Assembly: GCA_044451405.1 (NCBI GenBank)
Contig: JBIOKB010000004.1
Span: 1-37,789, forward strand
Source: Candidatus Babeliales bacterium
Lineage (GTDB): Bacteria > Babelota > Babeliae > Babelales > Vermiphilaceae
Direction: 5' to 3'
DNA: 37,789 nucleotides
In this document: one piece after another, positions 4,015 to 31,346 of the stretch
Position numbering within the stretch: the stretch's first letter is position 1
Layout: each line of letters opens with the position of its first letter
Translations under genes and position numbers: made by a program
The notes under the pieces: model-generated
What the model was told of the DNA's origin: nothing
The model's database searches: none
The model's input: only the letters and a program-made list of their open reading frames with translations

Positions 4015-4074
4015 CAGCCAGACGTAGCTTAACACTGCCTGAGGTTTAACTTCGATAGAAAGAGCGGAGACTGG
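4015..4074 (+). repeat. Family-1 modular palindromic element, cargo B
   Basis: ccagacGTAgctt-aacactgcctgaggtttaacttcgatagaaa-gagcGGAgactgg; near-identical to the reverse complement of 31286-31346. Confidence 0.9.
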
Positions 4075-5279
4075 TGGACCACCTACGTAACGATTTTCCA
4101 CTATTCAAATTTGATAAATCGCTTATCTATTTTGATAACGCGGCTACTACTCAAAAACCACAGATTGTTATTGATGCCCTCGTTGATGTGTATGCGCGGC
4201 ATAATGCAAATGTGGGCCGTGGTGTGTATGCGTTAAGTGAACAGGCAACAAAAGCCTACGAAAATGCACGTGCAATCGTAGCAGCTTTTATTGGTGCTCA
4301 TGCCCATGAGATTGTATTTACCCGTAATACGACGGAAAGCATCAACCTCGTAGCATGTACGTGGGCGCGGCATAATCTTGGTGCTGATGATGAAATTCTT
4401 ATTACCGAATTAGAACATCATTCAAATATACTACCGTGGCAATTGATCGCACGCGCAGCAGGAGCGCGCTTAGTGGTGCTTCCGGTAACCGATCAAGGCC
4501 AATTGCGCTTAGATCTGCTTGATACCTTAGTTACTCCAAAAACAAAATTAATAGCCATTACGCATGTTTCTAATGCGTTGGGTTCTCATACTGATGTTGC
4601 CCGGATTAAACAGGCAGCGGCACGCGTGGGAGCACGGATGCTTATTGATGCCGCTCAATCAATAGCGCACCAACAGATTTCAGTTGTTGATCTTGGCTGT
4701 GATTTTTTAGCATTTTCAGGCCATAAACTTTTAGGGCCGACTGGTATAGGGGTTCTCTATATTAATGAGAAGCTCCATGATGGGTTTCCTCCCTATCAAG
4801 TAGGAGGCGGCATGATTTATGAAGCTGATTTTACCCACGCAACGTTTTTACCGCTCCCTCATCGTCTTGAAGCAGGTACCCCATCTATCGCCCAAGCAAT
4901 AGCCTTAGGGGTGGCGATCACCTATATCAAAGACCATATTGATTTTACCCACTTGCGTGCCCATGAAGCGGCGTTATGCACCCAACTTATTGAAGGGCTT
5001 CAAAATCTTGCCGGGGTAACTATCCTCGGTCCCGTGGAAGAACTTAAAGAACGGGGGCATTTGGTAAGTTTTTCTGTTGCCGGGATTCATCCCCATGATG
5101 TTGCTGCGTACCTTGATACTAAGGGTATCTGTGTACGGGCAGGGCACCATTGCGCCCAACCTCTGGCTAAACGGTTAGGGTTAGATGCCTCGGTACGGGT
5201 GAGTTTTTATGCCTATAATACTCCTGGGGAAGTTCAGAAGCTTTTAGAGGCCTTGGAAGGGCTGTTGCGCTCCTCTTAG
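4074..5279 (+). CDS. sufS: Cysteine desulfurase SufS
   Basis: YFDNAATTQKP, FSGHK (PLP lysine), RAGHHCAQP catalytic Cys; GTG start. Confidence 0.97.
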   Translation: MDHLRNDFPLFKFDKSLIYFDNAATTQKPQIVIDALVDVYARHNANVGRGVYALSEQATKAYENARAIVAAFIGAHAHEIVFTRNTTESINLVACTWARHNLGADDEILITELEHHSNILPWQLIARAAGARLVVLPVTDQGQLRLDLLDTLVTPKTKLIAITHVSNALGSHTDVARIKQAAARVGARMLIDAAQSIAHQQISVVDLGCDFLAFSGHKLLGPTGIGVLYINEKLHDGFPPYQVGGGMIYEADFTHATFLPLPHRLEAGTPSIAQAIALGVAITYIKDHIDFTHLRAHEAALCTQLIEGLQNLAGVTILGPVEELKERGHLVSFSVAGIHPHDVAAYLDTKGICVRAGHHCAQPLAKRLGLDASVRVSFYAYNTPGEVQKLLEALEGLLRSS

Positions 5280-5337
5280 GAGAAGCTACACTGATAGTAT
5301 GAGGTTATAGAGGTTATTATCAAAATGGAGTATTTCT

Positions 5338-6462
5338 ATGGTTATCTCACGTTTACTTAATCTAGCCATATTACTTGGTTCCCTTCTGGGGGCAGTACCT
5401 ACCTATGCTATGGGTGGCAGACTTGCCTATGCGCCTAAAAGTCGCCTTGCAGCGCTTGCCTTAGGTTCAGGGGGACTATGGAGCTATTTTTCAGGTAAGC
5501 AGAAACAGCAACAATCACAGTTTTCTAGATTCCCTGCATCTGTTACATCTCCCTATGCTCATCTTGATTTAAACCCGCGTGGGTTATTCCACTCGCTTCC
5601 TAAACCAAAAGTAGTGCCTCTGAGTATACCGGCACCAGCAATAGATGAGGGCGCCCCATTATTTGATGTGTTGTCTTTGACGCTAATGCCAGCAATGGCA
5701 GCATGGGGTAGTTATGATGCTACACCTGTATGTATATACGAAAAAATTAGGCGATATGACAGCTTTCTTGCAAGCAAAAAAGATAATAATGCACCACGAT
5801 TTACAAAAGAAGAGATAAAACAATTGACCGTAGATGTACCCGAACCAGAGGTAGAAAAAATTGCGGAACAAAATGCAATACAAACTGGGGTAAGAGCTGC
5901 GACAATAGGAGCATTATCAGTTGGGCTTTCTAAAGGTATTGAGTTTGCTACGGGAGTCGATACGGAATCAGTAGAAGAAATAGGGGAATTTGTAACAACT
6001 ACGATGGAAAAAGATTCGCTTAGTGATGATGAGAGAAAAGAATTTAATATGCCATCAACAGTGAAGCTTGTATTTAAACTTGGATTAGTATGGCTTGCCT
6101 TTCAAGGTCTTAAAAAATTATTTACGTATACAACTGGCTATCAATGCCAGTGTCCAGCATTGCCATCATCAATAGTAGGTACTGGTAAGTTTTCAAAAGT
6201 TTTAAAAAGCTTCATAGAAGGTGCAACACGAATGTCTGTTAAAGCAGCAATAGCATCAAGTGTGGTGATGCCATTATTAAGTATGAAAGAAACTAATACG
6301 GCACCTGTTTCAGATGTGCGTATAGAGAGCATGCTACATAAGAAACTTGAAGACAAGTCTATCAAGGAAAAAGATCGCAATGAACTATTGAAACAGTTTA
6401 GAGAATTTAAGAAACAGCAAGACAAGGAAAAAGAAGAAGTAGAGATGGCAGTTCCTGCATAA
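5338..6462 (+). CDS. Hypothetical exported/membrane protein
   Basis: 374 aa ORF, GGAG RBS, signal peptide, terminator downstream. Confidence 0.8.
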   Translation: MVISRLLNLAILLGSLLGAVPTYAMGGRLAYAPKSRLAALALGSGGLWSYFSGKQKQQQSQFSRFPASVTSPYAHLDLNPRGLFHSLPKPKVVPLSIPAPAIDEGAPLFDVLSLTLMPAMAAWGSYDATPVCIYEKIRRYDSFLASKKDNNAPRFTKEEIKQLTVDVPEPEVEKIAEQNAIQTGVRAATIGALSVGLSKGIEFATGVDTESVEEIGEFVTTTMEKDSLSDDERKEFNMPSTVKLVFKLGLVWLAFQGLKKLFTYTTGYQCQCPALPSSIVGTGKFSKVLKSFIEGATRMSVKAAIASSVVMPLLSMKETNTAPVSDVRIESMLHKKLEDKSIKEKDRNELLKQFREFKKQQDKEKEEVEMAVPA

Positions 6463-6484
6463 AACCAAAACTATGCAAATATCC

Positions 6485-6511
6485 AATAGGCGGCTACGGC
6501 CGCCTATTTTT
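6485..6511 (+). terminator. Rho-independent terminator
   Basis: aataggcggc-tacg-gccgcctatt followed by T run. Confidence 0.85.
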
Positions 6512-6572
6512 ATACAAAAAAAATTAGCTCCTATATACTTGGCTTTATTTCTAAAGCTTTTGCACATCTGAG

Positions 6573-7430
6573 GTGATCATGAACACGCGTGATCTTTTAT
6601 TATTAATTTTCTTAAGTATTACTGTAACTTTCCCCTGCTGTGCAGATAGTTCTGCGATGTCACCTGATACTCAAGCAGCTATTAATTCCGTTGAGCACAT
6701 GATTAAGCAATCAGAAGATACGCAAGAAGATGATAGCGATCTCGTTGGCGTGACGCTGGAGGGAACACTACAGGCTGCAGTTATAAATGGGTTAAAATAT
6801 GCTACAGGATATTATTTGTTAGATGCGAGTATGAAACGAACATCCCGGAAGCTAGTAAGAATTGATCGTAAGTTAGAATGGCGTATTAATTGTGCTTTAC
6901 TTAGGCCGTTACGTGATTTTGAAAAAAAAAGAATCAAAGCATTATCAAGTGATCGTGATATTGAACACGGTATTATTATTCTGGAAGCATTAAAACCCAC
7001 GAAATATAACATACATCTTTTTAGCGCCCTGGCTGCCCAATATGCGGGAGCAACACTTGCATACGGTGCTCTTCGCGCAGCTACTAAAGAACTAACCGAT
7101 TGTGATGCAGCACCGATTGTGCAAGATTCTCTCGAGGCGATAACAAGACAAACTATTGGTTACTATGTAGCACCAGCATCACCAAACATTAAACTATTTT
7201 CTCAGAATCAGATTGCTTCTTACGTAGCAACAGATTTAACGGTTGCTGCCAGTATGTATGCGTATAAAGAAATGACGGGCAAGAAATTAAGTTGTCCAAA
7301 ACTTCCTATCCCTGCTGCATTGCGCGGTACCTATATCAATGAAAAAAATATAGGAACTGGTATCTATTATGGCACCAAATATATCCTGCGTACATTAGTT
7401 ATGGACAAACTTTGTGGCGTACCGGCGTAA
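6573..7430 (+). CDS. Hypothetical exported protein (start may be ATG 6579)
   Basis: 285 aa ORF, GAGGT RBS, signal peptide; C-terminus resembles that of 5338..6462. Confidence 0.8.
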   Translation: MIMNTRDLLLLIFLSITVTFPCCADSSAMSPDTQAAINSVEHMIKQSEDTQEDDSDLVGVTLEGTLQAAVINGLKYATGYYLLDASMKRTSRKLVRIDRKLEWRINCALLRPLRDFEKKRIKALSSDRDIEHGIIILEALKPTKYNIHLFSALAAQYAGATLAYGALRAATKELTDCDAAPIVQDSLEAITRQTIGYYVAPASPNIKLFSQNQIASYVATDLTVAASMYAYKEMTGKKLSCPKLPIPAALRGTYINEKNIGTGIYYGTKYILRTLVMDKLCGVPA

Positions 7431-7432
7431 CG

Positions 7433-8071
7433 TTAAGCCACCTTCTTATTACTATACAACACATACACAATTAGTGAGCTGATGAGTGCTGCAAAAAAGC
7501 ACCAGATAGAAGCAACATGGGATGTTTCCCATGCATGGCTGCCAATAAAGCTTATGAGTGTACCAATACCAAATAATCGCATGTGCCGCGTTGTGGCAAT
7601 ACATGGTGGTACGGTGATGGTAATCAGATACCAGAATTGTAAAAAGCTATACGGTGTGTGTTCTGGGGTATCAACGGTATAGGCAATATGTTGCGTGACG
7701 TGTGCATGAACAGGATAAAGAGCTAATGCTATGTATGCGACACTTGTGTACACAACTCCCATCCCTATAAAAAGATACATATCATGTGCACGTTTCCTGC
7801 TTTTTTCCATGAGCCATACGGCAACCGGTATGATGGTTGACCAGGATGATGCGATTATTAAAAACACGTAAGGAGCAGCGGTAGCCCACCAGTTAGTAGG
7901 GTTAGTGTGCGTTGTCCATATGATGCCTTCCATGGTTTGTTGTACAGCAAAAAGAACGGGTATTAAAGCAAGAAGCCGCTGATTGTTGGTACGTGTTTGT
8001 GAAAGTGCAGCAATACCCATACCGGTTAAAAAAAGTGCAGAACCAAAACTTGCGTGTGCAGAAAAACACAT
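7433..8071 (-). CDS. Multi-pass membrane protein, DUF6629-like
   Basis: MCFSAHASF N-terminus, PVLFAVQQ..EG..W, SIWCFFAA. Confidence 0.8.
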   Translation of the reverse strand: MCFSAHASFGSALFLTGMGIAALSQTRTNNQRLLALIPVLFAVQQTMEGIIWTTHTNPTNWWATAAPYVFLIIASSWSTIIPVAVWLMEKSRKRAHDMYLFIGMGVVYTSVAYIALALYPVHAHVTQHIAYTVDTPEHTPYSFLQFWYLITITVPPCIATTRHMRLFGIGTLISFIGSHAWETSHVASIWCFFAALISSLIVYVLYSNKKVA

Positions 8072-8085
8072 GGAATTATTCCCCC

Positions 8086-8133
8086 TGTCCTTCGTAGCTT
8101 GCCGAGCTGATTGCCCGGATAAGCGTAGTAGGA
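8086..8133 (+). repeat. Family-1 modular element, cargo A
   Basis: tgtccttcGTAgctt-gccgagctgattgcccggat-aagcGTAgtagga. Confidence 0.9.
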
Positions 8134-8294
8134 TCCGTTAGATAACCATTCTGTTATTAATGTACAGATGCGCATATCCAAAAGACAAGAGTATTGTGTG
8201 TTAAACACGGTACAGTAACATCTATTTTTTATTGTGATAAATGGGGTAGAGTAAAAATGTAGATCAGTAATAAGCTGTTATCAAATGAGTTTGA

Positions 8295-8346
8295 TCCAGC
8301 CTACGCTTATCCGGGTTGTCAGACTCGGCAAGCTACGGCGGACAAG
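8295..8346 (-). repeat. Family-1 modular element, cargo A
   Basis: Reverse complement tgtccgccGTAgctt-gccgagtctgacaacccggat-aagcGTAggctgga. Confidence 0.9.
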
Positions 8347-8359
8347 AAGGGGGATAGCT

Positions 8360-9133
8360 ATGACGCGTCAGTTACGTATATTTTTTGTGGGTATTATGTG
8401 TATAGGGCTTATGACATCATCCATACGGGCAGGTGGGACAGAAGATATCATGAGTCGTTCTCCTGTAATTGCGATATTAGTCGCAGTATGTGCAGCAATG
8501 GGATATTATATCTACGGTTATATCAAAGGTCATGATACCGTTTCAATCAAGCTTGCTACTGTTGAAGGTGGCGTTCAAAAAGTAAATGCAGATCTTGGAG
8601 CATTTAAAAAAGAAACAGAAAGCAATTTTAATGCGGTACTCGGTGGACAAGTTGCTTTGGTAAAAGGCCAGGAGGGATTACAGGAAAAAGTAGCTCAAGT
8701 TGATGATAAAGTAACTGCAGCACAGAGAGAAATTGAGGGACTTCGTAAACTTACAACTGAGATTAAAACAGATACTACTGATATAAAAAAACGTGCACAT
8801 GAAATACACATTAAATTGCTTGAAATTAATAGTAGATTGGATATCCAAACAGGTGAAATCTCTTCAATGAAAACAATTCTCGAGTCAGTTGCCACCAAGT
8901 ACGATGTTGAAAAACTCCAAGAATCAGTGGATGGATTAAAATCTGAAGTATCTGGAATGCGAAAGGTTATTCTCACTCAAGGTCATATGTCACAGATTAA
9001 ACAAGTGGTGGGACAGGCGATAGATGATAGAATTGATCGTGCACGTGCTGGATATACTAAGCAATTGGAGGATGCACTTGAACCACATAAAACGGCACCA
9101 CGCCAAATGTTAAAACAGACTGCAACTGCATGA
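8360..9133 (+). CDS. Signal peptide + TM + coiled-coil hypothetical protein
   Basis: ATG 8360 follows AAGGGGGA; the ORF-track start at 8285 translates the repeat; heptad-rich body. Confidence 0.8.
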   Translation: MTRQLRIFFVGIMCIGLMTSSIRAGGTEDIMSRSPVIAILVAVCAAMGYYIYGYIKGHDTVSIKLATVEGGVQKVNADLGAFKKETESNFNAVLGGQVALVKGQEGLQEKVAQVDDKVTAAQREIEGLRKLTTEIKTDTTDIKKRAHEIHIKLLEINSRLDIQTGEISSMKTILESVATKYDVEKLQESVDGLKSEVSGMRKVILTQGHMSQIKQVVGQAIDDRIDRARAGYTKQLEDALEPHKTAPRQMLKQTATA

Positions 9134-9150
9134 AGCAATGAAAGGATCTA

Positions 9151-9831
9151 ATGAAATTGAATACAAAACTTATGACATTACTCATCATGGTAGTGAGTAT
9201 CGTAGCTCTTATTCGTATCAGTGGTGTAACCTCATTAGTCACCTTAGATCGTATTAAAGAAAAAAGTCTTGAATTAAAGCAGATGGTTCATGATCATTAT
9301 CTGCAATCGGTAGCAATGTATACGGGGCTTGTTCTCATTGTTGCAGCAACCTCGATTCCCATAGTAGTTATCCTTGTTGTAGCAGGTGGATTTTTATTTG
9401 GTACCTTGTTGGGCGCGCTCTACGCAACTATAGGAGGTCTGGTTGGCGGCATTATTGCCTTTCTTATGTTCCGGTATTTTTTGCGTTCTGTGGTTGAAGA
9501 ACACTATGGAGCTCAACTTGCACGCTTTAATGAGAAGATACATGTGTACGGATACAACTACATTATAATTCTTCACTATTTAACGGTAATACCCTTATTT
9601 ATTATTAATATGTGCGCTGCCCTCACTCCCATTTCATTAGGCCATTTTGTTTGGATAACATTGTTGGGTTCGGCACCATTATATGTGGTGTATGCCCTTG
9701 CAGGACGTGAATTGGCTACCATTAGATGTGTGCAAGATATTTTTTCTGCGCAGATTATTCTTGCATGTGCATTGCTTATTGTAGTGGCATTAATTCCAAT
9801 GCTTATAAAGCGATACCAGGCACGGCATTAA
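9151..9831 (+). CDS. TVP38/TMEM64 (DedA/VTT) family membrane protein
   Basis: GGFLFG, AFLMFRY, PLFIIN, multiple TMs. Confidence 0.9.
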   Translation: MKLNTKLMTLLIMVVSIVALIRISGVTSLVTLDRIKEKSLELKQMVHDHYLQSVAMYTGLVLIVAATSIPIVVILVVAGGFLFGTLLGALYATIGGLVGGIIAFLMFRYFLRSVVEEHYGAQLARFNEKIHVYGYNYIIILHYLTVIPLFIINMCAALTPISLGHFVWITLLGSAPLYVVYALAGRELATIRCVQDIFSAQIILACALLIVVALIPMLIKRYQARH

Positions 9832-10693
9832 TAGGGGAATTCAATGCAGTAAGATATGCACATGCTGCATCAAAATCAGGAACATGCTTCCACGGTTGTA
9901 GCCATGAGAATGCTGGGGTAATAAGATGGGCTTGCATACCACATGCGCGTGCAACGCTAATATTTTCAGGGCGATCATCAAAAAAGGTGCACGCCGATGC
10001 AGGAATTCCGAGTGTATTGGTAATATGTGTATATGATGCAGGATCAGGCTTCATGAAGCCTGTGTGCCCAGAGATGAAGATGCGATCTTCAAAGAGATTA
10101 AAAAAATCAGGATCTTGTTGTTTTAATAACTCAAATGATTCACGTGCCCAGGTAGAATGAATGCATGGCTTTAATCCACGTGCAACACACTCCTGCACAA
10201 ACGCTTTTCCTTCAGGAACAATATATTGTGTCTTTATAAAACGTTCAGGGGTGAACATCATGGAGGTTAATGCGCGGATCATGGTTGTTTCTATGTGGTT
10301 AAGGTAAGCAAGGGCTTTAAGAGCAGCATCAATGTTAGTACGTACCTGCTCGTCAGTTATCCCTCCCTTAAAGTGGGTACACATAATTTGGGGGAGTAAT
10401 CTCCCTTCAGGATCACGGGCAGCTACTTGGTTTGGGTTTCGTTCTTCAACTGATGTTAAAAAGGGGAACAATAATTCATCGTATATCATCTTTTTTAATA
10501 CAAAGATGCGGGTAATATTAGCAAGGGCGTACTGTATAAATGGGGTATAGCCAACTTCTTTAAAAGCAGCTCTTTTATCAGTTTTTACTAAAACCTCTCC
10601 TAAATCGAAAATAGCATGGGTTACCGGCCCCTGGGCAACAAGCCCTAGGCTGATACTCAGTGAACAGAGGAGAGCAATGATAATACTGCGCAT
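9803..10693 (-). CDS. HAD-family hydrolase with N-terminal signal peptide
   Basis: IFDLGEVL, KPDP, FFDDRPENISVA; hydrophobic N-terminus. Confidence 0.85.
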   Translation of the reverse strand: MRSIIIALLCSLSISLGLVAQGPVTHAIFDLGEVLVKTDKRAAFKEVGYTPFIQYALANITRIFVLKKMIYDELLFPFLTSVEERNPNQVAARDPEGRLLPQIMCTHFKGGITDEQVRTNIDAALKALAYLNHIETTMIRALTSMMFTPERFIKTQYIVPEGKAFVQECVARGLKPCIHSTWARESFELLKQQDPDFFNLFEDRIFISGHTGFMKPDPASYTHITNTLGIPASACTFFDDRPENISVARACGMQAHLITPAFSWLQPWKHVPDFDAACAYLTALNSPINAVPGIAL

Positions 10694-11228: not shown

Positions 11229-11234
11229 ATTACA

Positions 11235-12967: not shown

Positions 12968-13324
12968 ATGAACATATACCAAGCAACCTTAATGGATCAT
13001 TATAAAAATCCCCGCAATCGCGGTACGTTGCCCATGCCTGATTTTAGTTCAGAGCAGTTGAACCCTTCTTGTGGTGACCAGATCTGTATGGCAGGTTTGC
13101 TACAGGGTGATGTGGTTACTAACGTAGTATTTCAAGGTACTGGCTGTGTTATTAGCCAAGCAACGGCATCGTTATTAACAATCCATGTTGTGGGCTTTTC
13201 ACGTGATATGATTCTTGCTATGGATAGCGCTGCTCTCTGCAACCTTATTGGCATGGAGCTGGGACCTACCCGGCTGAAATGTGCGCTGTTACCATTGCAG
13301 GCATTACAGCAAGGGCTACGGTAA
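12968..13324 (+). CDS. sufU: SufU/IscU-family Fe-S scaffold or sulfur-transfer protein
   Basis: DHYKNPRN, NPSCGD, GCVISQA, RLKCALL. Confidence 0.9.
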   Translation: MNIYQATLMDHYKNPRNRGTLPMPDFSSEQLNPSCGDQICMAGLLQGDVVTNVVFQGTGCVISQATASLLTIHVVGFSRDMILAMDSAALCNLIGMELGPTRLKCALLPLQALQQGLR

Positions 13325-13329
13325 GTTGT

Positions 13330-14451
13330 ATGTTGGATCGTTCAAAAGTATTGCGTGCCTTACAAGAACAAACACATCCATTATTTTATGATCATGAGCA
13401 TGAATATGCCTATGCGCGTACGCTTTGGCAGCAGATATGCGCTGATCCTACCTTTCCCTATAAAGTGCATGAAGCAAAAACAGATCTTCCCATTCCTACG
13501 TGGCACGGATCGTTAGGCGATGTTATTGAGTGTGGTCACCTTTTAGGGCCACATCAGGTTATTGGTGTTGATGGCTCTCAGATGTACCCCGATCGGCATC
13601 AGGGTCTTGTCTGTTACTTAATTAATATTGGTGCGGTGATACTTACCTACGGAGATAAAAATAAGCCAGTTTGCTTTCAATCAGATCCGTATGTGTTTGT
13701 GGGTGATACGGAGTATGAAGGTATCCCACTCTCCCCTGATGTTATTAATTGCCGACGTGATGTGTATGAATTTGCAGCGGGAGTGCGATTAAGCCGAGAA
13801 TTTAAACAAGCGCAGCTCAAGCGGTTGTTGCTTTTTGATGGCACTCTTATTTTTTGGCATTTGGAAGCAAAAGATCAGATTTTTAAGCAAGTATTTCTGC
13901 AACTGTATATTAAAGAACTGCATGCATTGTATGAACAGCGTATGTTGTGTGCCAGTTATGTGAGTATGCCAAAGCATAAAGAAGTTTCTCATCTTCTACG
14001 TCTTGCTGCATGTAATTTTGTGTTGGATGCGTGTACAGAGCTTGAACATCTTGAGCATATTAATGATGCAGCGCTCGTGCGATTATACGTAAAACCCTAT
14101 GCACGTACAACAGTATTTACCTACCAAGGCGCGTTAAAAGATAGTTACCCGCCTCATCTGCGGCCCCACTTTTTTTATATTAATAGCGGTACTGAAGTTG
14201 GCCGTGTTGAAATTCCTGCATGGATTGCCCGTGATGTACAGTTAATTGATACCGTTGCGAGTATTATTGTAGATCAATGTAGAAAAGGTAATGGGTATCC
14301 TGTTGTGCTTGCTGAAGCGCATGAACAAGCAGTTATTAAAGGCCCGGATCGTGATTTTTTCTATCATCTGATTGCTAAAATGAGCATTGATCAGAATTAT
14401 CGTATTACGCGATCGCAAAAAAGTATGAAAAAGCGGGGCATTGGGATTTGA
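13330..14451 (+). CDS. nurA: NurA-family nuclease
   Basis: GVDGSQ, LFDGTL, GRVEIPAW, GYPVVLAEAHEQAVI; likely start ATG 13330. Confidence 0.88.
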   Translation: MLDRSKVLRALQEQTHPLFYDHEHEYAYARTLWQQICADPTFPYKVHEAKTDLPIPTWHGSLGDVIECGHLLGPHQVIGVDGSQMYPDRHQGLVCYLINIGAVILTYGDKNKPVCFQSDPYVFVGDTEYEGIPLSPDVINCRRDVYEFAAGVRLSREFKQAQLKRLLLFDGTLIFWHLEAKDQIFKQVFLQLYIKELHALYEQRMLCASYVSMPKHKEVSHLLRLAACNFVLDACTELEHLEHINDAALVRLYVKPYARTTVFTYQGALKDSYPPHLRPHFFYINSGTEVGRVEIPAWIARDVQLIDTVASIIVDQCRKGNGYPVVLAEAHEQAVIKGPDRDFFYHLIAKMSIDQNYRITRSQKSMKKRGIGI

Positions 14452-17788: not shown

Positions 17789-18934
17789 TTAGCTTACAAA
17801 TCGCTTAAAAAATCCGGTTATGCTGCTCTCATGTTCAGTAGCTTCATTCCCCGTTGCTTGCGCATAATCATTGAGCGCTTTTTTAGCATTAGTACTCAAT
17901 TTTTTAGGAATAATACATTGGGTAATCACTACCAAATTCCCTTTGGCATTTCCACGAACGTGTGGAAACCCTTTTCCAGGCACAATGATATGTTCGTTTA
18001 CCGGGCATCCCTTGGGAATTTTAATGGTAACTTTGGATCCATCGATACTTTCTATTTCTACTTGACCGCCTAATACGAGCTGTGGGTAGGTAAGCATGAT
18101 AGAACATTCAAGGTCATCACCAACACGCTTAAATTTCTTGTCGGACATTACATGTACTTTGATAAACAGATCGCCGGTACTGCCGCCATACACACCCGCA
18201 TCACCTTTATCTTTAATGCGCAGTTCAGCGCCATCATAGATACCGGCAGGGATGTTGACTGAAAATTTCTCATATTCACGGGTTCTAGAACTTCCTGAGC
18301 AGGTAGAGCAGGGGGAGGCTATTTTATACCCAAGGCCGTTACAGCTGGTACACGGTTGTGTGTACATGAAAAAGCCTTTGGTAAAGTGCATTTGCCCTTG
18401 GCCGTTACATGATTTACAGGTTTCTATTTTGGTGCCAGGTTTTGTGCCAGATCCCTTACAGGTAGCGCATGATACAAATCGTTGGTAGCCAAGGTCTTGT
18501 TTGCACCCAAGAAACGAATCTTTGAGCGTGATTTGAACTTCTTTAGCTAAATCGTGGCCCCGTTGTGGCGTTGGGCCACTTTTTTTACGTCCATGCCGTT
18601 GTTGTCCGCCAAACATATCACCAAAGATATCGCCAAAGGCACTAAAGATATCATCCATATTCATATCATGAGGACCATGCTGTCCGCCCATGCCGCCCAT
18701 ACCTTCAACGCCGGCAGCGCCAAATTGGTCATAGCGCTTGCGCTTATCAGGGTCAGACAAGACTTCATATGCCTGGGCCGCTTCTTTAAATTTATTCTCA
18801 GCCTCTTTGTTGTCTGGGTTACGGTCCGGGTGATATTTGAGGGCTAATTTGCGGTAGGCAGCTTTGATGTCATCCTGGCTGGCCGATTTGGCGATCCCTA
18901 AAATGCCATAATAATCTTTGTTTTCCATGCTCAT
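17789..18934 (-). CDS. dnaJ: Chaperone DnaJ
   Basis: J domain with HPD, G/F region, four CxxCxG repeats, C-terminal domain. Confidence 0.97.
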
Positions 18935-19017: not shown

Positions 19018-19078
19018 CAGCCCGGCGTAGTTTAAAGCTTCCTCGGGTTTTTCTTCGATAGTAAAAACGTAGAGGGGC
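19018..19078 (+). repeat. Family-1 modular element, cargo B variant
   Basis: cagcccggcGTAgttt...cttcgatagt...aaacGTAgagggg. Confidence 0.8.
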
Positions 19079-19136
19079 AAACCTGAAGCTCAGGTTCGAA
19101 AATAAATAAATAACAATATATTAAAACAATAAACCA

Positions 19137-19216: not shown

Positions 19217-19930
19217 ATGAAGAAGATTATGATAGTTGCGCTCCTAGTTGCCCTAGTAGCAGGTGTGTGGACGCCAATGGTTCAAGCGGATGCAAAGGCT
19301 GATTTACAGCAAGCAGGTAATATTGCCGGAATAGTTAAAGGTTTTGCTGGAACTATTTGTAATCAGAAAAATCCAGCTACTGGCAACAATGATATGTGTC
19401 CTAGCGATGTCCTCACTAAGGTTAAAATGGTAATTGATCTTGGTTCAACTTCATTGATTACTGCAGCTACATTAAGCCAAACGGCAGATCAATTTCCAAA
19501 TAAGACCAGAAAAGCTATTGCAGATCTTCAACTAGCAGCCGCAGGTGTTAATACTGCTTCAATTGGGGTAAAAAATGCAAAAACAGCTCAAGATCAAATA
19601 GATACTTTAATGACGTATTTAAATGCGCAAGGTAAATTTATTGGTGTTATTGCTGATTATCTGGATAGTTTAGAGTCAGATATTTTTAACCCTATATTTA
19701 GTCTTATTGAAGCTATGCCATTTGTAGGATCTAAAGTAGTTATTGATGGTAAGCCAGTAAGCCTTGTAGTTGGTAACATGTTAAGTGCACTTAAAAAGAG
19801 AAATGATACATTTTTAAAAGCTGTCAGTGTATTGCCAACAGTGATTAAATCGGTTGAAGCAGCAGCAACAGGTGGAACTGCGCCTGCAACGGCGGCACCG
19901 GTAGTTAAAGGCGAAGAATTTGGATTCTAA
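19217..19930 (+). CDS. Exported helical hypothetical protein
   Basis: GAGGT RBS, signal peptide ending VQA. Confidence 0.85.
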   Translation: MKKIMIVALLVALVAGVWTPMVQADAKADLQQAGNIAGIVKGFAGTICNQKNPATGNNDMCPSDVLTKVKMVIDLGSTSLITAATLSQTADQFPNKTRKAIADLQLAAAGVNTASIGVKNAKTAQDQIDTLMTYLNAQGKFIGVIADYLDSLESDIFNPIFSLIEAMPFVGSKVVIDGKPVSLVVGNMLSALKKRNDTFLKAVSVLPTVIKSVEAAATGGTAPATAAPVVKGEEFGF

Positions 19931-19983: not shown

Positions 19984-19984
19984 C

Positions 19985-20042
19985 CTGCCCTTCATAGCCT
20001 TCACAGCTCTTGTTTGACCTTCGAAGAAAAGGCGACGTAGGG
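19985..20042 (+). repeat. Family-1 modular element, diverged cargo B
   Basis: ctgcccttcATAgcctt...ccttcgaag...aaggcGACgtaggg. Confidence 0.7.
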
Positions 20043-20045
20043 TTT

Positions 20046-21692: not shown

Positions 21693-22322
21693 ATGAGCGT
21701 TATAATACCATCAACCCCACTTTCACGTGACTTTTATGCCCGAGATACAGTAACCGTAGCCCAAGATTTATTGGGTAAAGTACTCGTGCGTGAAGTTGAT
21801 GGTGTCCTACTTGCGGGCATTATCGTAGAAACGGAAGCCTATCGATCAGATGATGCTGCATGTCATGCATACAAGGGGCAAACCCCACGTACGGCACCGT
21901 TGTTTGGTCCGGTGGGTTATACGTACGTCTATTTTATTTATGGAACTCATTTTTGTGTAAACTTTGTATCGCGTGATGCATCAGTAGCTGCCGGCGGGGT
22001 ACTTATTCGAGCACTTGAGCCGATTGCAGGTATTGCGTATATGCAACAACGGCGCGGCGTATCTGGGCACACACATCTTACCAACGGACCGGGAAAGCTT
22101 ACAAAAGCGCTCGCAATTACGCGTGATCAGATTGGTATTGATGCAACTCAACTTGGCTCATTGTATGTGGGAGAAGGCAGAAGCTATAGCGCATCTGATA
22201 TTGTTGCAACGCCGCGAATTGGTATTTCACAAGCACAAGATCTTTTATGGCGATTTTTAGTGAAGGGTAATGGCGTCAGCCCGGCGAAGCCTAATGATGC
22301 TTCAACGTTATTCTCTAAATAG
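21693..22322 (+). CDS. mpg: DNA-3-methyladenine glycosylase (MPG/AAG family)
   Basis: IVETEAY, YVYFIYG, VLIRALEP, TNGPGKL, TPRIGI. Confidence 0.95.
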   Translation: MSVIIPSTPLSRDFYARDTVTVAQDLLGKVLVREVDGVLLAGIIVETEAYRSDDAACHAYKGQTPRTAPLFGPVGYTYVYFIYGTHFCVNFVSRDASVAAGGVLIRALEPIAGIAYMQQRRGVSGHTHLTNGPGKLTKALAITRDQIGIDATQLGSLYVGEGRSYSASDIVATPRIGISQAQDLLWRFLVKGNGVSPAKPNDASTLFSK

Positions 22323-22351
22323 TGCGCCTATGCGCACCAGGCGAAGAGGGG
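22277..22351 (+). repeat. Family-1 element with nested family-3 hairpin (22320-22339)
   Basis: cagcccggcGAAgcct...tagtgcgcctatgcgcacc-aggcGAAgagggg. Confidence 0.8.
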
Positions 22352-23970: not shown

Positions 23971-23977
23971 CAATTAC

Positions 23978-25064: not shown

Positions 25065-25078
25065 AGTTCCATACTTTC

Positions 25079-27700
<2,622 letters not shown>

Positions 27701-27704
27701 TCAT

Positions 27705-28193
27705 ATGCACACACGCGCTACCCCATTTGGTCATGAACGTGATCAATATTACATGAATCAAGCACTCGTATATGCGCGCAGAGCATATGCGTCTAACGAA
27801 GTGCCTATAGGCGCTCTTGTTGTTGATGGCGATGGTGCTATTATTGGTCGCGGCTATAACCGCGTAGAAGCGTTGCATTCCCAAACAGCGCATGCAGAAA
27901 TGCGGGCAATTGCTGCTGCTACCAAAAAACGTAACGATTGGCGTCTTGCCGGGTGCTGGCTCTATGTTACCCTTGAACCGTGTAGTATGTGCATGGGGCT
28001 TATTACCCTGAGTCGCGTGCAGGGGGTTGTGTTTGGTGCAAGCTCCCCACTCTTTGGCTATCGTCTTGACAACGATGCGGGCAATTCGATATACAAAATA
28101 GATGCGGTGCACACTATTGAAGGGGTCGGTGTAGTACAAGCTGCAGAACTATTAAAACAGTTTTTTCAAAAACAAAGGAAGAGGCGTGGGTGA
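27705..28193 (+). CDS. tadA: tRNA adenosine(34) deaminase
   Basis: EVPIGA, AHAE, TLEPCSMC. Confidence 0.9.
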   Translation: MHTRATPFGHERDQYYMNQALVYARRAYASNEVPIGALVVDGDGAIIGRGYNRVEALHSQTAHAEMRAIAAATKKRNDWRLAGCWLYVTLEPCSMCMGLITLSRVQGVVFGASSPLFGYRLDNDAGNSIYKIDAVHTIEGVGVVQAAELLKQFFQKQRKRRG

Positions 28194-28572
28194 AGCAAAA
28201 AAAGTATCGCGTGAATTTGCTACGGTACACAAAGAACTTTTAAAACGTAAACTAGAACTTGAACAAGAGATGCAAGCATTAAATAGTCAAAAGTTCTCTG
28301 ATGATCAAGTGCAAGATGTGGGGGATCAAGCGCTTACGTCAACCATGGATAGCCTCACCAGTTCCATACAAAATACCAAAATTGATGAATATAAACGGAT
28401 TGTGCGTGCCCTTGAAATGATAGAAGAAGGAACGTACGGCGTATGTGTTGATTGTGGTAATCCTATTTCTGAAAAGCGGTTAAAATCATTCCCGAATGCT
28501 ACTCGGTGTTTGTTGTGCCAAGAGGCGTATGAAGATGGCATACCGGCTCGAGTGCCTGAGAGTGAGATTTAA
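28186..28572 (+). CDS. dksA: DksA/TraR C4 zinc-finger protein
   Basis: DVGDQA (DxxDxA), YGVCVDCG...RL...CLLC; GTG start. Confidence 0.85.
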   Translation: MGEAKKVSREFATVHKELLKRKLELEQEMQALNSQKFSDDQVQDVGDQALTSTMDSLTSSIQNTKIDEYKRIVRALEMIEEGTYGVCVDCGNPISEKRLKSFPNATRCLLCQEAYEDGIPARVPESEI

Positions 28573-28583
28573 GACTGTGGCGC

Positions 28584-28651
28584 CAGCCAGGCGAAGTTTG
28601 CCGAGCTTGAAAGCCCGGATAAGCAAAGTAGTGCGCTTTAGCGCACCAGAC

Positions 28652-28654
<3 letters not shown>
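28584..28654 (+). repeat. Family-1 element (cargo A) with nested family-3 hairpin (28629-28648), abutting the tRNA CCA
   Basis: cagccaggcGAAgttt-gccgagcttgaaagcccggat-aagcAAAg-tagtgcgctttagcgcacca-gactgg. Confidence 0.85.
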
Positions 28655-28727
<73 letters not shown>

Positions 28728-28778
28728 AATCAAGGCCAAAAGTATAACACAGGGTATGGCAGGATGAGAAGGTCAATT

Positions 28779-28806
28779 TTGACATTTCCCCACAGGCGTG
28801 TAACCT
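28779..28806 (+). promoter_or_regulatory. Probable rpsI promoter
   Basis: TTGACA-16 bp-TAACCT. Confidence 0.55.
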
Positions 28807-28857
28807 AATAAACCATAATATTATAGGTACAGTGTACACAAGGAACGTTCAAGACGT

Positions 28858-29325
28858 ATGGAAAAAACTAAAGTTAAAGCATCAGCAAAGCCAGCTGCTC
28901 CAAAGGCTAAAAAAACTACGATCAAGACCCCTAAAGTGGTTCCCGTTTCTCATGGCGTAGGTCGCCGTAAGTCTGCTGTTGCCCGTGTATGGATGCGTCC
29001 AGGCAAGGGTTCTCTTCAAGTAAATGGCAAAGATTTTAAAGACTATTTTGACACCGATGTTACTCGTACCGATGCAACTATCCCTTTCCACGTTGTACCG
29101 GTAAGCCGCGAGTTTGATGTACAAGTAAATGTTGCTGGTGGGGGCTTATATGCCCAGGCTGGCGCTATCAAGCTTGGCATTGCTCGTGCATTAGTGCGTT
29201 ATGACGAATCTCTCCGTCCCTTGTTAAGACAGCATAAGCTATTAACCGTGGACGCTCGTCGCAAGGAACGTAAGAAATATGGACAGCCAGCGGCACGTCG
29301 TAAGTTCCAATTCGTGAAACGTTAA
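28858..29325 (+). CDS. rpsI: 30S ribosomal protein S9
   Basis: GRRKSAVARV, GGG..AQAGAI..GIARAL, KERKKYG; K/A/P-rich N-terminal extension. Confidence 0.98.
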   Translation: MEKTKVKASAKPAAPKAKKTTIKTPKVVPVSHGVGRRKSAVARVWMRPGKGSLQVNGKDFKDYFDTDVTRTDATIPFHVVPVSREFDVQVNVAGGGLYAQAGAIKLGIARALVRYDESLRPLLRQHKLLTVDARRKERKKYGQPAARRKFQFVKR

Positions 29326-29333
29326 GAATCAAG

Positions 29334-29369
29334 GCCACCGGTGATACGATACCTCGTGTTGCCGGTGGT
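29334..29369 (+). other. Strong intercistronic stem-loop between rpsI and glmS
   Basis: gccaccggtgatacga-tacc-tcgtgttgccggtggt; no U tail. Confidence 0.7.
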
Positions 29370-29389
29370 GCTCGTCTCAAGGAAGCAGT

Positions 29390-31234
29390 ATGTGTGGGGT
29401 AGTTGGATATATCGGTAATCAGTATAGTAGAAAAATTATTTTAGATGGCCTATCTCGCCTCGAATACCGGGGATACGATACTGCGGGTTTTGCCTGTTTA
29501 AATCCTGATGACAATCGCCTGGTTTATCAAAAATCTGAAGGACATCTGCATAATCTAGTTAAAAAGATTGACCAATCGCCCATTGATGGTCATTTAGGTA
29601 TTGGCCACATTCGCTGGGCAACCCATGGCAATTCATCTGAAATCAATGCTCATCCCCAATTTGATTGTGAAAAAACGTTATCGCTCGTGCATAATGGCAT
29701 CATTGAAAATCATCTTGCAATAAAAAGACGGTTAGAAGAAGACGGACACGTTTTTCATTCCCAAACTGATTCTGAAGTTATTGCACATCTTTTTGAAGCA
29801 TTATTAGTTTCCCATTCTACTTTTAAAGCAGCTATTGTTGAGCTCGTTAAAGAGCTTGAAGGTGCGTATGCTTTTGTAGCCATTATGCAGAATTTCCCTG
29901 ATCGCATGGTGCTGGTACGCAAGCGTTCTCCGTTATGTATTGGTATTGGTGATGGGGAAATGTTTGTAGCATCAGATCCTATGGCTTTTAATGGTAAAAC
30001 ATCAAAAGTGCTTTTTTTACCTGATGAAAGTTTTGCTATTGTACGTACCGATTTAGTCTCGCTCTATGATTTTCATGGCAATGCGTTAGCTGTGCAAACG
30101 CAGGATATTCAATCCCAGTGGGGTGATTATGAAAAGCAGGGTTATGAACATTTCATGCTCAAAGAAATTTATCAGCAAAAAGGTGCTATCCAGCAAACGG
30201 TGACCTCATTGCGTTCATTAACTCATCGCATATGGGATGATCTTAATCTTACAGCTGACTATGTAAAACAGCTTAACACCATAAACTTAATCGCATGCGG
30301 TACGTCATGGCATGCAGCACGTATTGCCCAATTTTATTTTGAAACGGTCTGTTTAATTCCTACGCGGGTACATTTAGCGTCAGAATTCCGCTACACATCA
30401 TTTTTCCCTGAACAAAATAGTGTGTATGTATTTATTTCCCAATCGGGAGAAACGGCGGATACCCTTGAAGCATTACGCTTAGTGCTTTCTTTACAGTTGC
30501 CTACGCTTGCAGTAACGAATGTTCCCTCAAGTTCCTTGGTGCGTGAATCTGATGGTTTTATATTAACCCATGCCGGGCAAGAAGTTGCCGTTGCTTCAAC
30601 AAAAGCATTTTCAACGCAGATGGCAGCACTCTATTGGCTTGCGCATCGTATCGCGTTAGAGAAACAGTGTATTACCCATGAGCAGATGCATCAGGCAGAA
30701 GAAGACCTGTTGGTGATAGCAGAGGTGCTTGAAAATACCATTGAAAATTACAAGATGCCGATCATACAATCACTTGCTAAAAAATATAGCGGTGTCAAAC
30801 AAGCGATCTTCTTGGGTCGCCATATTAGTTATCCCTTTGCCCTAGAAGCAGCACTTAAGTTTAAAGAAATCTCCTACATTGCTGCTGATACCTATCCTGC
30901 TGGTGAGCTTAAGCATGGTCCACTAGCGTTAGTTGATGAGCATACGCCGGTATTCATCTTCTCCTGTAAAGATCCTATTATTTATTCAAAGCTCACGGCT
31001 AACGCCCAAGAGGTTAAGGCCCGTGGGGGGCGCATTATAGCCTTTGCGTTTGAAGGGCAAACGGAGCTCTGTTCGCTGGCTGATGATAGCTTTATAATAC
31101 CGCGGGTTAAGCCGCTATTAGGGCCACTTGCTATGACCGGGGTTATGCAGTTTTTTATCTACCATATTGCCCGTGAGTTAGGCAGACCGATTGATAAACC
31201 CCGTAATTTGGCTAAATCAGTGACGGTGGAGTAG
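29390..31234 (+). CDS. glmS: Glutamine-fructose-6-phosphate aminotransferase
   Basis: MCG, RLEYRGYD, RWATHG, SQSGETADT, GELKHGP, PRNLAKSVTVE. Confidence 0.98.
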   Translation: MCGVVGYIGNQYSRKIILDGLSRLEYRGYDTAGFACLNPDDNRLVYQKSEGHLHNLVKKIDQSPIDGHLGIGHIRWATHGNSSEINAHPQFDCEKTLSLVHNGIIENHLAIKRRLEEDGHVFHSQTDSEVIAHLFEALLVSHSTFKAAIVELVKELEGAYAFVAIMQNFPDRMVLVRKRSPLCIGIGDGEMFVASDPMAFNGKTSKVLFLPDESFAIVRTDLVSLYDFHGNALAVQTQDIQSQWGDYEKQGYEHFMLKEIYQQKGAIQQTVTSLRSLTHRIWDDLNLTADYVKQLNTINLIACGTSWHAARIAQFYFETVCLIPTRVHLASEFRYTSFFPEQNSVYVFISQSGETADTLEALRLVLSLQLPTLAVTNVPSSSLVRESDGFILTHAGQEVAVASTKAFSTQMAALYWLAHRIALEKQCITHEQMHQAEEDLLVIAEVLENTIENYKMPIIQSLAKKYSGVKQAIFLGRHISYPFALEAALKFKEISYIAADTYPAGELKHGPLALVDEHTPVFIFSCKDPIIYSKLTANAQEVKARGGRIIAFAFEGQTELCSLADDSFIIPRVKPLLGPLAMTGVMQFFIYHIARELGRPIDKPRNLAKSVTVE

Positions 31235-31285
31235 GGAGAAGGACTGGCCCCTATTTTACCCAACCTCACAGAAGCTCGTTTGGGA

Positions 31286-31346
31286 CCCAATACTTCGCTC
31301 TTGCTATCGAAGTAAGACCTCAGGCAGTGTTAAGCTACGCCGGGCA
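31286..31346 (-). repeat. Family-1 modular element, cargo B
   Basis: Reverse complement tgcccggcGTAgctt-aacactgcctgaggtcttacttcgatagcaa-gagcGAAgtattggg. Confidence 0.9.

Follow-up and report, generated by a model that had tools for sequence, protein, structure and literature searches.

Clamp-bearing palindromic elements in Babeliales genomes and a candidate GIY-YIG partner gene

What are the eight short, imperfectly palindromic repeats that lie in a 37,789-nucleotide stretch of Candidatus Babeliales bacterium DNA (the whole of contig C4, hereafter the window), and what might move them? A first-pass annotation had described them as a non-autonomous mobile element or structured nucleic acid module with swappable inserts. 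The host genome is a 1.02-Mb metagenome-assembled genome (MAG) from the Babeliales (Dependentiae), 95.7% complete and in 89 contigs. Our preferred reading, to which as a whole we assign a probability of about 0.55, is that the eight copies belong to an order-wide Babeliales family of small (~45–75 nt) palindromic mobile elements, similar in kind to the REP and RPE families, that has a GIY-YIG nuclease as its partner and some copies of which the host has co-opted. The repeat is a hairpin-forming sequence that has spread through the reduced genomes of intracellular Babeliales, with some copies lodged inside essential genes, and a tiny GIY-YIG nuclease gene found next to the elements may, to judge from sequence, be what moves them.

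A profile search with nhmmer recovered all eight copies to within a few bases of where they had been reported, with no additional copies in the window at E ≤ 1e-3 (Table 1). Each copy comprises an outer stem (CCNN.. / ..NNGG), a symmetric, purine-rich internal loop in which C-GNA-G faces C-GNA-G, a 4-bp stem and an exchangeable apical module, or cargo. The clamp is constant whilst the cargo varies, both between copies and between genera. The outer stem usually contains one further mismatch, often G.A, adjoining the C-G pair, and we infer that the GNA/GNA loop itself forms sheared G.A pairs.

Table 1. Clamp elements and associated features of the window, with their genomic surroundings
Feature	Position	Strand	Support	Surroundings
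Clamp element, cargo type B	4015..4077	+	nhmmer 4015-4076, E 1.7e-8	82-nt spacer between SufBD-core gene (3200-3991) and class-V aminotransferase/SufS gene (4074-5279), same strand as both (neighbours by Pfam)
Clamp element, cargo type A	8084..8135	+	nhmmer E 1.4e-14; RNA fold z -3.12	Antisense to DUF6629 gene (7433-8071, -), just ahead of that gene's GGGGGA (Shine-Dalgarno-like) and ATG
Clamp element, cargo type A	8292..8346	-	nhmmer E 2.4e-16; RNA fold z -2.44	Antisense, 13 nt upstream of likely true start (ATG ~8360, preceded by AAGGGGGA) of + gene ending 9133
Clamp element, cargo type B	19018..19081	+	nhmmer E 3.4e-16	Divergent spacer, dnaJ (17789-18934, -; Pfam DnaJ) / ORF 19217-19930 (+)
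Clamp element, cargo type B, loops CATAG / CGACG	19984..20045	+	nhmmer E 2.6e-10	Convergent spacer 3' of ORF 19217-19930
Clamp element, cargo type C with nested small hairpin	22274..22350	+	nhmmer E 5.5e-9	Supplies last 16 codons and stop (translation) of methylpurine-DNA glycosylase gene (21693-22322); Pfam domain ends at residue 193 of 209
Family-3 mini-hairpin (TA-GTGCGC-loop-GCGCAC-CAG)	22320..22340	+		Nested in type C copy
Clamp element, cargo type A with mini-hairpin in 3' arm	28583..28654	+	nhmmer 28583-28631, E 1.1e-11; RNA fold z -1.79	Starts 11 nt past stop of DksA-type zinc-finger gene (28186-28572); terminal TGG is complement of tRNA-Thr CCA end
Family-3 mini-hairpin	28629..28649	+		Nested in 3' arm of type A copy
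tRNA-Thr (CGT)	28652..28727	-	ARAGORN; Rfam tRNA 69.1 bits	3' CCA continues straight into reverse complement of element
Clamp element, cargo type B	31286..31349	-	nhmmer 31291-31346, E 1.6e-10	~55 nt downstream of, and antisense to, glmS (29390-31234, +; Pfam SIS/GATase)

The claim that structure is conserved more than sequence, with an inner stem that covaries around a retained GNA/GNA loop, is confirmed along with the scaffold itself. In an alignment of 95 type-A copies from many genomes, 96.1% of cells are paired (at most 49% in slid-register controls), compensatory change is seen in 9 of 15 pairs, and there are 130 double-change cells versus 34.9 in shuffled alignments, none of 500 shuffles reaching 130. 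In both C-GNA-G loops the G and the A are unpaired and near-invariant, on one strand only. Compared with shuffled sequence, only type A has a more stable fold (RNA z −1.8 to −3.1); B and C do no better than shuffles (RNA z −0.4 to −0.9; DNA z +1.4 to −0.2), a point against our preferred reading. Minimum-energy folding recovers the clamp in five of the eight window copies. The division of the cargo into discrete types stands for A and B; the copy at 22277, previously set apart as the only carrier of a 'family-3' hairpin, represents a third type, C, and the copy at 28584 has a hairpin of this family too. Copies can have other small elements nested within them.

Beyond the window, 87 copies are found at E ≤ 1e-3 in the 1.02-Mb genome (45 with cargo A, 20 with B and 22 with C), scattered over at least 40 contigs. 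A generic clamp pattern, CCNNCGNAG-N(12-42)-CGNAGNNNGG, has 40 matches in the host genome and none when read backwards as a control, and the copy count is thus far above chance. Across 61 genomes of the same family, the pattern is matched 342 times versus 52 for the control, and the clamp is present in most of the families sampled from the order, exceeding its control in many of the 21; each genus brings new cargos. In Rfam only tRNA reaches the gathering threshold and none of the eight matches at E ≤ 5 overlaps a copy, the elements corresponding to no family there.

Copies have entered new sites in UTRs, in operon spacers and, in frame, in the coding sequence of housekeeping genes. In TruB the element forms a 16-column insert that none of 12 orthologues has; in PotA the insert is 22 residues long and missing from all 23 orthologues compared, and in PheT it adds a net 10 residues, missing from all 22. 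The first-pass annotation's picture of a dispersed, modular element is supported. Crude ORF calls place 16 antisense and two sense copies deep in ORFs, three of them confirmed by orthologue alignment; the antisense strand of type A, read directly, is open in all three frames, and copies within coding sequence are nearly all in the orientation that lacks stops. Over 52 nt two type-A copies are identical, and their flanks are unrelated. In the related genome G065, ~225 nt of stacked elements separate two neighbouring genes, which carry no annotation and which we read as TolQ- and TolR-like; in its congener G017 the gap is 10 nt. That the elements form a mobile palindromic family is, in our view, highly probable.

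In 78 anchored copies the flanks show neither conservation nor duplication, apart from a 5' [A/T]G; no target-site duplication is visible, and an exact element boundary could not be defined. Were the repeats MITEs, that is, deletion derivatives of a DDE-transposase IS sharing its terminal inverted repeats, each copy should be flanked by such a duplication. In favour of this origin are the imperfect inverted repeats at the ends, the variable interior and two DDE_Tnp_1 ORFs on the small contigs C71 and C80. Neither contig contains an element match, however, no parent IS with matching terminal repeats was found, and the host genome has no rve or TnpB genes. Moreover, the 'inverted repeats' covary as a stem whilst keeping a non-complementary GNA/GNA bubble, and the elements are much shorter than MITEs usually are. 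We regard this origin as very improbable.

The first-pass annotation had pointed to RAYT/HUH genes flanked by copies as possible partners. In common with the REP/REPIN–RAYT systems, the clamp elements are short imperfect palindromes present in great numbers; one strand carries a conserved, purine-rich tetranucleotide (G-N-A-G), and a small nuclease gene adjoins some copies. REPs are also used secondarily as terminators or mRNA stabilisers. Y1_Tnp genes occur in 20 of the 61 family genomes, yet Y1_Tnp (PF01797) has no match in the host genome or in the copy-rich genomes G001, G016 and G017, its presence is not associated with clamp count (odds ratio 1.05), and six Y1_Tnp loci of relatives have only marginal matches to the element profiles (E 0.1 to 5). 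Unlike the REP tetranucleotide, which lies at the 5' foot, GNAG is present in both arms, within the stem as a 3x3 internal loop, and REPs are extragenic whereas many clamp copies, 18 by the crude calls, are intragenic. The clamp elements' candidate partner, moreover, has the GIY-YIG fold. A REP/REPIN family moved by a RAYT (Y1 HUH), or a palindrome-associated IS200/IS605 derivative, is thus largely refuted by the absence of Y1_Tnp from copy-rich genomes and its lack of association with clamp count, and its likelihood is close to negligible.

Searches of the host genome for other candidate enzymes yielded none besides GIY-YIG; the only tyrosine recombinases were two ~310-aa XerC/D-like genes. 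With 95.7% completeness and 89 contigs, an unassembled transposase is conceivable. The earlier statement that neither transposase nor nuclease lies nearby is correct for transposases in the window, which does hold a NurA-domain ORF (13279-14451), ~5 kb from the nearest copy.

Could the clamp instead be primarily a host RNA signal (a terminator, a tRNA 3'-processing or stabilising hairpin, or an mRNA UTR hairpin) that has spread through ordinary duplication and recombination with no enzyme dedicated to it, the GIY-YIG gene using it as a leader or landing place? About 13 of 33 host tRNA genes continue exactly at the CCA into the reverse complement of an element, all 13 elements being antisense. 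An intrinsic terminator would be a G+C-rich hairpin with a T-run behind it on the transcribed strand; several of these tRNA-linked copies have a T-run, some by eye with at least four Ts past the last segment, and dispersed copies mostly have none. This design recurs at most of the tRNAs looked at in G017; it is present in G009 too, where the cargos are minimal. The three segments 3' of the tRNA allow two mutually exclusive hairpins. Directly ahead of a Shine-Dalgarno sequence and ATG there are 11 antisense copies versus one sense, and the first 45 nt past a stop codon hold 23 sense copies and 14 antisense ones. The clamp is, in addition, conserved across the order, and this conservation and the fixed place after tRNAs also fit a host function. 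Against this stand the in-frame inserts absent from all compared orthologues, the identical copies with unrelated flanks, the nesting of other small elements, the 17 copies in divergent spacers and the lack of an orientation preference after coding sequences. Furthermore, in the orientation-biased contexts (tRNA trailers, 5' UTRs and ORFs), the RNA carries the strand opposite to that of the conserved GNA loops, a point that also counts against the preferred reading; the near-invariant G and A are missing from the tRNA and 5'-UTR transcripts. A host RNA signal as the primary identity is, on balance, distinctly unlikely. The tight link of the elements to tRNA 3' ends and 5' UTRs had escaped the first-pass annotation.

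Among known repeats, the Rickettsia palindromic elements (RPEs), too, are palindromic repeats of small size whose host is an obligate intracellular bacterium with a reduced genome; in the portion of the literature available, they have no transposase assigned to them. As with RPEs, clamp elements are found in frame in conserved protein genes (TruB, PotA and PheT). RPEs are roughly 100–150 nt in length. The clamp elements are shorter and differ further in their conserved GNA/GNA bubble, their exchangeable apical modules, their fusion to tRNA 3' ends and their candidate GIY-YIG partner gene. Membership of the RPE-1 to RPE-8 families is unlikely, given the different phylum and length. Integron attC sites likewise keep structure over sequence, with a few fixed unpaired bases on one strand and a centre of variable length. 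The clamp copies form no cassette arrays, however, and are dispersed, intragenic and tRNA-linked; the lack of an integron integrase or cassette array and the scatter over contigs speak against attC membership.

GIY-YIG genes beside copies, which the first-pass annotation had also raised, do occur: as a candidate trans-acting nuclease the host genome encodes a small protein of 80 aa in three genes, all outside the window, and each begins within a same-strand type C-like copy or no more than 25 nt behind it. A scan for Shine-Dalgarno-preceded starts (ORFs of at least 60 aa) within 45 nt of the 3' end of the GNA strand found one for 1 of 87 elements and missed these three genes. At least two CGNAG motifs are present on the sense strand in the 120 nt upstream of 25 of 29 homologues within the family and 15 of 27 in other families. 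The antisense strand gives 3/29 and 4/27, and background windows give 25/936 and 24/816 (about 3%). The upstream element has one fixed orientation and distance across the order, and the gene always lies beside an element, never between its two halves.

The gene is found in 41 of the 61 family genomes, in up to eight copies and with pseudogenes. With the genomes being kin and the figures descriptive only, clamp count and GIY-YIG count have a Spearman correlation of 0.44, and the gene is present in 26 of 30 genomes with at least three clamps versus 15 of 31 others. It is absent from G006 (17 clamps, 61% complete). The link between nuclease and elements depends on adjacency and on a correlation that is phylogenetically non-independent. 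An 80-residue GIY-YIG domain, moreover, lacks a DNA-binding module. The proposal that this protein is the mobilising enzyme is tentative, at somewhat less than even odds.

On the preferred reading, the stand-alone 80-residue nuclease, its multi-copy gene immediately 3' of a same-strand element, would keep the family moving by recognising the folded clamp, with its GNA/GNA bubble on one DNA strand, and nicking at the clamp or at the target; repair-driven copying would then spread copies that have no ORF, by analogy with REP elements and RAYT or MITEs and their parent IS. The host may have co-opted copies in two settings: behind tRNA genes, where they would be the standard 3' trailer and terminator hairpin, and in 5' UTRs, where they would form hairpins directly in front of ribosome-binding sites.

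The gene could equally be a separate selfish gene homing into the repeats. In the fuller form of this idea, the elements are mobile but owe this to some other activity, and the nuclease gene, free-standing and independent of them, homes to the repeated clamp or to the tRNA flank. There is a precedent in phage T4, where, in the portion of the source available, segB is a free-standing GIY-YIG gene in a tRNA gene cluster with selfish behaviour comparable to that of the multi-copy Babeliales gene (PMC2330249). Consistent with homing, the gene sits beside and not within the elements, and 7 of the 18 genomes that lack any clamp match carry it nonetheless. Unlike SegB, though, the Babeliales protein is chromosomally encoded, multi-copy and always behind a structured repeat, and it consists of the catalytic domain only, with no DNA-binding module, which is unlike sequence-specific homing enzymes. 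Together with the fixed arrangement of the upstream element and the lack of other candidate enzymes in searches of the host genome, this makes independent homing rather unlikely.

The protein matches the Pfam GIY-YIG domain (PF01541; E 4.4e-16 and 6.7e-17), and at least 90% of 51 gapless sequences keep the consensus ..VY..Y.G.T..R..HN..FE.YLK.., with its catalytic-type Tyr, Tyr, Arg, His/Asn and Glu. No NCBIfam model matches it, and our literature search found no published link between small GIY-YIG proteins and repeats. The closest solved sequences are UPF0213 proteins (PDB 1zg2 and 1ywl; E 3.8e-5 and 5.5e-4), a family for which we know of no function, and there are weaker matches to the structure-specific nuclease SLX1.

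The first-pass annotation described eight copies, within the window (one complete contig of 37,789 bp), of a small hairpin repeat in which an outer stem, a loop of C-GNA-G facing C-GNA-G and a 4-bp stem carry an exchangeable apical cargo (the clamp element). All eight are present where they were placed and are retrieved by profiles of genome-wide copies with E values from 1.7e-8 to 2.4e-16, whilst the profile search finds no further window copies at E≤1e-3. Extended to the whole genome (1,023,543 bp in 89 contigs, completeness 95.68%), the search yields 87 loci at the same threshold, which divide into cargo types A (45), B (20) and C (22). The cargos are indeed discrete, as the annotation held, with the addition of type C, which it left unnamed and to which the copy at 22277, with its nested small hairpin, belongs. 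When the clamp alone is sought, whatever its cargo, the pattern CCNNCGNAG-N(12-42)-CGNAGNNNGG has 40 matches in the genome vs none when read backwards. A suggested comparison with Rfam places the window copies outside every family, with no match even at E≤5.

Evidence for the hairpin comes from an alignment of 95 type-A copies drawn from numerous Babeliales genomes, assembled from 119 pattern matches, 93 of them with a full 5' clamp, together with two complete window copies; the search pattern pre-set part of the inner hairpin and left the outer stem and 5' GNA free. In the proposed structure 96.1% of cells are paired (at most 49% when the partners are slid), and double-sided changes occupy 130 cells compared with 34.9 ± 4.6 in shuffled alignments, none of 500 shuffles being as high. 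Compensatory change is seen at 9 of 15 pairs, two examples being C-G (69 copies) replaced by U-A (26) and G-C (73) by A-U (22), with zero mismatches in both. C16, A19 and G20 never vary and at least 90% of copies conserve G17; the 5' C-GNA-G is therefore kept although unpaired. In the window genome's own copies the loops are mostly GTA or GAA and the position outside the C-G is usually mismatched, often as G.A. A strong structural claim is weakened by the folding energies: type A exceeds shuffled sequence in stability (RNA z -3.12, -2.44 and -1.79), but types B and C show no such excess (RNA z -0.36 to -0.89; DNA z +1.41 to -0.23), and the minimum-energy fold recovers the clamp in five of the eight window copies.

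A strict type-A pattern matched 12 of 41 relatives, all in one family, but a looser clamp pattern reveals this apparent restriction to be an artefact of the pattern. The generic clamp has 342 matches in 61 genomes of the family vs 52 in the control, and many of the 20 other families sampled lie well over control (19 vs 1, 12 vs 1 and 12 vs 1, for example). The cargos differ by genus and include variants of type A, variants of type B and several new ones, which bears out the idea of a constant clamp with interchangeable cargo.

Copies are also found within genes. Amongst those deep in ORFs (by crude ORF calls) 16 are antisense and two sense, a bias that arises because no stop codon interrupts any of the three frames on the reverse complement of type A, the GNA strand (that bearing the near-invariant loop G and A) containing TAG, TAA and TGA. 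Comparison with orthologues in the family's other genera identifies 16 alignment columns at a type A copy in TruB that are missing in 12 of 12 proteins, a 22-residue insert at a type B copy in PotA missing in 23 of 23, and a net 10-residue insert at a type A copy in PheT missing in 22 of 22; in these protein alignments the inserts show as clean, in-frame and lineage-specific. A copy in MutL was dropped as a proven insertion, the hypervariable linker around it being unalignable. In the window, the final 16 codons of a methylpurine-DNA glycosylase gene derive from a type C copy, the Pfam domain ending at residue 193 of 209. Of the contig segments C13:1-385 and C64:1-359, the second duplicates the beginning of the PheT gene at 97% identity and stops within the same element; the assembly thus breaks inside a copy, whether from heterogeneity between strains or from a break that the repeat induced.

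Elsewhere, two type-A copies are identical across 52 nt with unrelated flanks, and one spacer measures 10 nt in G017 vs about 225 nt in its congener G065, where it consists of stacked small elements, one of them a clamp element. The neighbouring genes are unannotated, and appear TolQ- and TolR-like from their sequences. The site is polymorphic, with stacking and divergence blurring the base-level ends and any target duplication. At the flanks of copies no target-site duplication is seen, the sole regularity being a 5' [A/T]G ahead of YCC. A query of JGI metagenomes for close relatives via the TruB protein gave 304 pattern matches, none confirmed, and no nucleotide-level empty site for the species. 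Taken together, these results show that the clamp repeat is structured, modular and order-wide and that it inserts at new sites, including coding sequence.

What might move it? The annotation pointed to RAYT/HUH or GIY-YIG genes. The former is rejected as very unlikely: neither the window's genome nor the copy-rich relatives G001, G016 and G017 match PF01797 (Y1 transposase/RAYT), the multi-copy IS200-like genes that do match it in 20 of 61 family genomes show no association with clamp number (odds ratio 1.05), and their loci bear no resemblance to clamp elements. Six relatives (G047, G049, G053, G054, G060 and G062) have IS200/IS605-type Y1 transposase genes, with 5-9 matches per genome and fragments at contig ends; they form an IS family that is active in some Babeliales and has no relation to clamp elements. 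The window's genome has no match to TnpB, reverse transcriptase or rve integrase; it encodes two XerC/D-like recombinases and two DDE_Tnp_1 ORFs, the latter on small contigs without element copies. The only nuclease-family gene of the window has a NurA domain (E 2.2e-19); no link to the repeats is seen and the nearest copies are about 5 kb away.

The GIY-YIG genes are a different matter. PF01541 matches three small ORFs of 80-82 residues in the window's genome, each behind or within an element, as well as a 425-aa ORF. Homologues occur in 41 of 61 family genomes (up to eight per genome, several with stops or truncated) and in 26 of 46 genomes sampled across the order. On the strand of the gene, CGNAG motifs cluster within 120 nt upstream. 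A stricter clamp detector finds only 2 of 29 (family) and 6 of 27 (other families) of these upstream regions, since, on reading the sequences, the variants there often have enlarged loops.

Coordinates of features in the window and of small GIY-YIG ORFs elsewhere in the genome
Feature	Location	Remark
Clamp copies	window 4015, 8086, 8295rc, 19018, 19985, 22277, 28584, 31286rc	
tRNA-Thr	window 28652-28727	tRNA with element trailer
Small GIY-YIG ORF	C62:137-379	type C copy ends about 20 nt before ATG; second copy downstream
Small GIY-YIG ORF	C29:10345-10593	25 nt behind a C-like copy, within a cluster of tRNAs and elements
Small GIY-YIG ORF, degenerate	C28:98-346	begins inside element directly after a tRNA
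Second mini-repeat	window 22320-22340, 28629-28649; also about 340(-), 705(-)	
NurA-domain ORF	window 13279-14451 (+)	
RRM-domain gene	window 31787-32110 (+)	107 aa
Three tandem paralogous ORFs	window 32191-34828 (-)	

GIY-YIG genes, and background windows, with at least two CGNAG motifs
Region	Family	Other families
Upstream, sense	25/29	15/27
Upstream, antisense	3/29	4/27
Downstream, sense	3/29	3/27
Downstream, antisense	4/29	5/27
Background windows	25/936	24/816

The 51 GIY-YIG proteins align without gaps at a median identity of 55%. Positions of the motifs typical of the fold are kept in at least 90% of them, which speaks for the small proteins being active enzymes. Amongst solved sequences, two UPF0213 proteins (1zg2 and 1ywl) lie closest, with SLX1 a weak match, and no NCBIfam model matches the small protein. 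Clamp number and gene number are correlated (Spearman 0.44) and the gene is present in 26 of 30 genomes with at least three clamps vs 15 of 31 with fewer, both comparisons being descriptive only as the genomes are kin. We infer that the nuclease is the partner of the clamp elements, one main rival being that the gene merely homes into the repeats. Several GIY-YIG units (loci L302, L303, L317 and L319; genomes G048, G053 and G012) have upstream a conserved ..GTTCTAAAATAGTCG.TTGTGGGACGCCA that ends in CCA like a tRNA; by eye it has no T-arm, and the usual hairpin of a trailer comes next. This stretch may represent the 3' terminus of some other stable RNA, or what is left of a tRNA that travels with the unit.

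The other main rival is that the clamp primarily serves a host RNA function. Amongst 33 tRNAs, 13 have a profile-detected element at the 3' end, all antisense, with two more degenerate examples found by eye. The element's reverse complement begins exactly at CCA, giving the design tRNA-CCA-NNC-TNC-GC..cargo..GC-TNC-GNNTGG-C-NNN-GCCA(G), with a T-run after some, in which the middle segment could pair with either the CCA end or the last segment. The same design follows most of 23 tRNAs examined in G017, and is present in a further relative, G009, with cargos down to a 5-nt loop. In G017, the 10-mer from the second C of CCA recurs as its reverse complement 25-300 nt downstream of 10 of 22 tRNAs (control 1 of 22), directly preceding a GNA-oriented element; this recurrence is seen for 3 of 30 tRNAs in the window's genome and 0 of 21 in G009. 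At G017 tRNA loci (L188-L216, e.g. L209 and L211) a conserved AT-rich spacer, ..TTAAGGATTG..TTGACATTAATAGCA.., separates the trailer hairpin from the GNA-oriented element that comes next. The spacer resembles a -35/-10 promoter, positioned such that transcription would begin at the element.

Upstream of genes, 11 antisense copies vs one sense lie within 45 nt of an SD-like motif and start codon. In this antisense manner a divergent promoter region is bordered by two type-A copies, one at 8292, placed by script, and one at 8084, placed by reading its flank. No strong orientation preference is evident within 45 nt of stop codons (23 sense vs 14 antisense), and 17 copies lie in divergent spacers. 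In the three biased contexts (tRNA ends, 5' UTRs and ORFs) the RNA would bear the strand opposite the conserved GNA loops. Besides the GIY-YIG partner, we infer a recognition step on folded single-strand DNA and co-option of elements by the host at tRNA ends and 5' UTRs.

In the boldest reading, a stand-alone, 80-residue UPF0213-like GIY-YIG nuclease would recognise the folded single-strand clamp with its GNA/GNA bubble and would drive the order-wide spread of modular hairpins with freely exchangeable apical cargo, which the host would then recruit as tRNA trailers and UTR hairpins. We give roughly one chance in three to this reading, under which these GIY-YIG-driven elements constitute an undescribed class of prokaryotic mobile element. 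In its behaviour the family resembles REP and RPE elements; on the defining tests of each it falls outside REP/RAYT, MITE, attC and all Rfam families. Searches of the literature outside subscription journals brought up no paper that links Dependentiae or Babeliales to such repeats and none that couples GIY-YIG genes to palindromic repeats.

To our knowledge, selfish palindromic DNA within protein-coding genes has until now been a Rickettsia hallmark. Its presence in a second, unrelated phylum of intracellular bacteria, whose genomes are of 1 Mb, shows that this lifestyle leads to it repeatedly. The clamp family differs from the Rickettsia elements in offering a candidate enzyme that can be tested and a clear-cut structural signature, and the movement of mini-elements is therefore open to experiment. 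If correct, the boldest reading would add a third enzyme solution to RAYT/REP and DDE/MITE and provide the orphan UPF0213 proteins with a function; the link may account for the widespread small GIY-YIG proteins of this type, so far function-less. Annotation of Dependentiae is affected through extra peptides in TruB, PotA, PheT, MutL and others, artefactual ORF extension, assembly breaks and tRNA gene ends set by elements.

The genome also harbours a second family of mini-repeats, (A)AATA-GTGYGC-loop(3-6)-GCRCAC-CA, with 49 oriented matches, 11 of them within, or no more than 30 nt from, a clamp element; GTG-stem hairpins as a whole number 150 vs 24-44 in shuffles. The opposite strand reads as a hairpin followed by TATTTT, for which reason this repeat may be a terminator that also moves. 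The window (41.5% G+C) further encodes a glycine-rich RRM-domain RNA-binding protein (E 7.4e-20) about 440 nt from the clamp copy at 31286-31349, a single-strand binder amid many structured repeats. Its other genes, including those for the Suf system, DnaJ, GyrB, GlmS, TilS, ribosomal protein S9, many secreted coiled-coil proteins and ankyrin-like paralogues, are consistent with an intracellular lifestyle. Three tandem paralogues have in common a signal-like segment at the N terminus and an ASEEERKAK motif, and can be read as ankyrin-repeat-like proteins, typical of effector families of intracellular bacteria.
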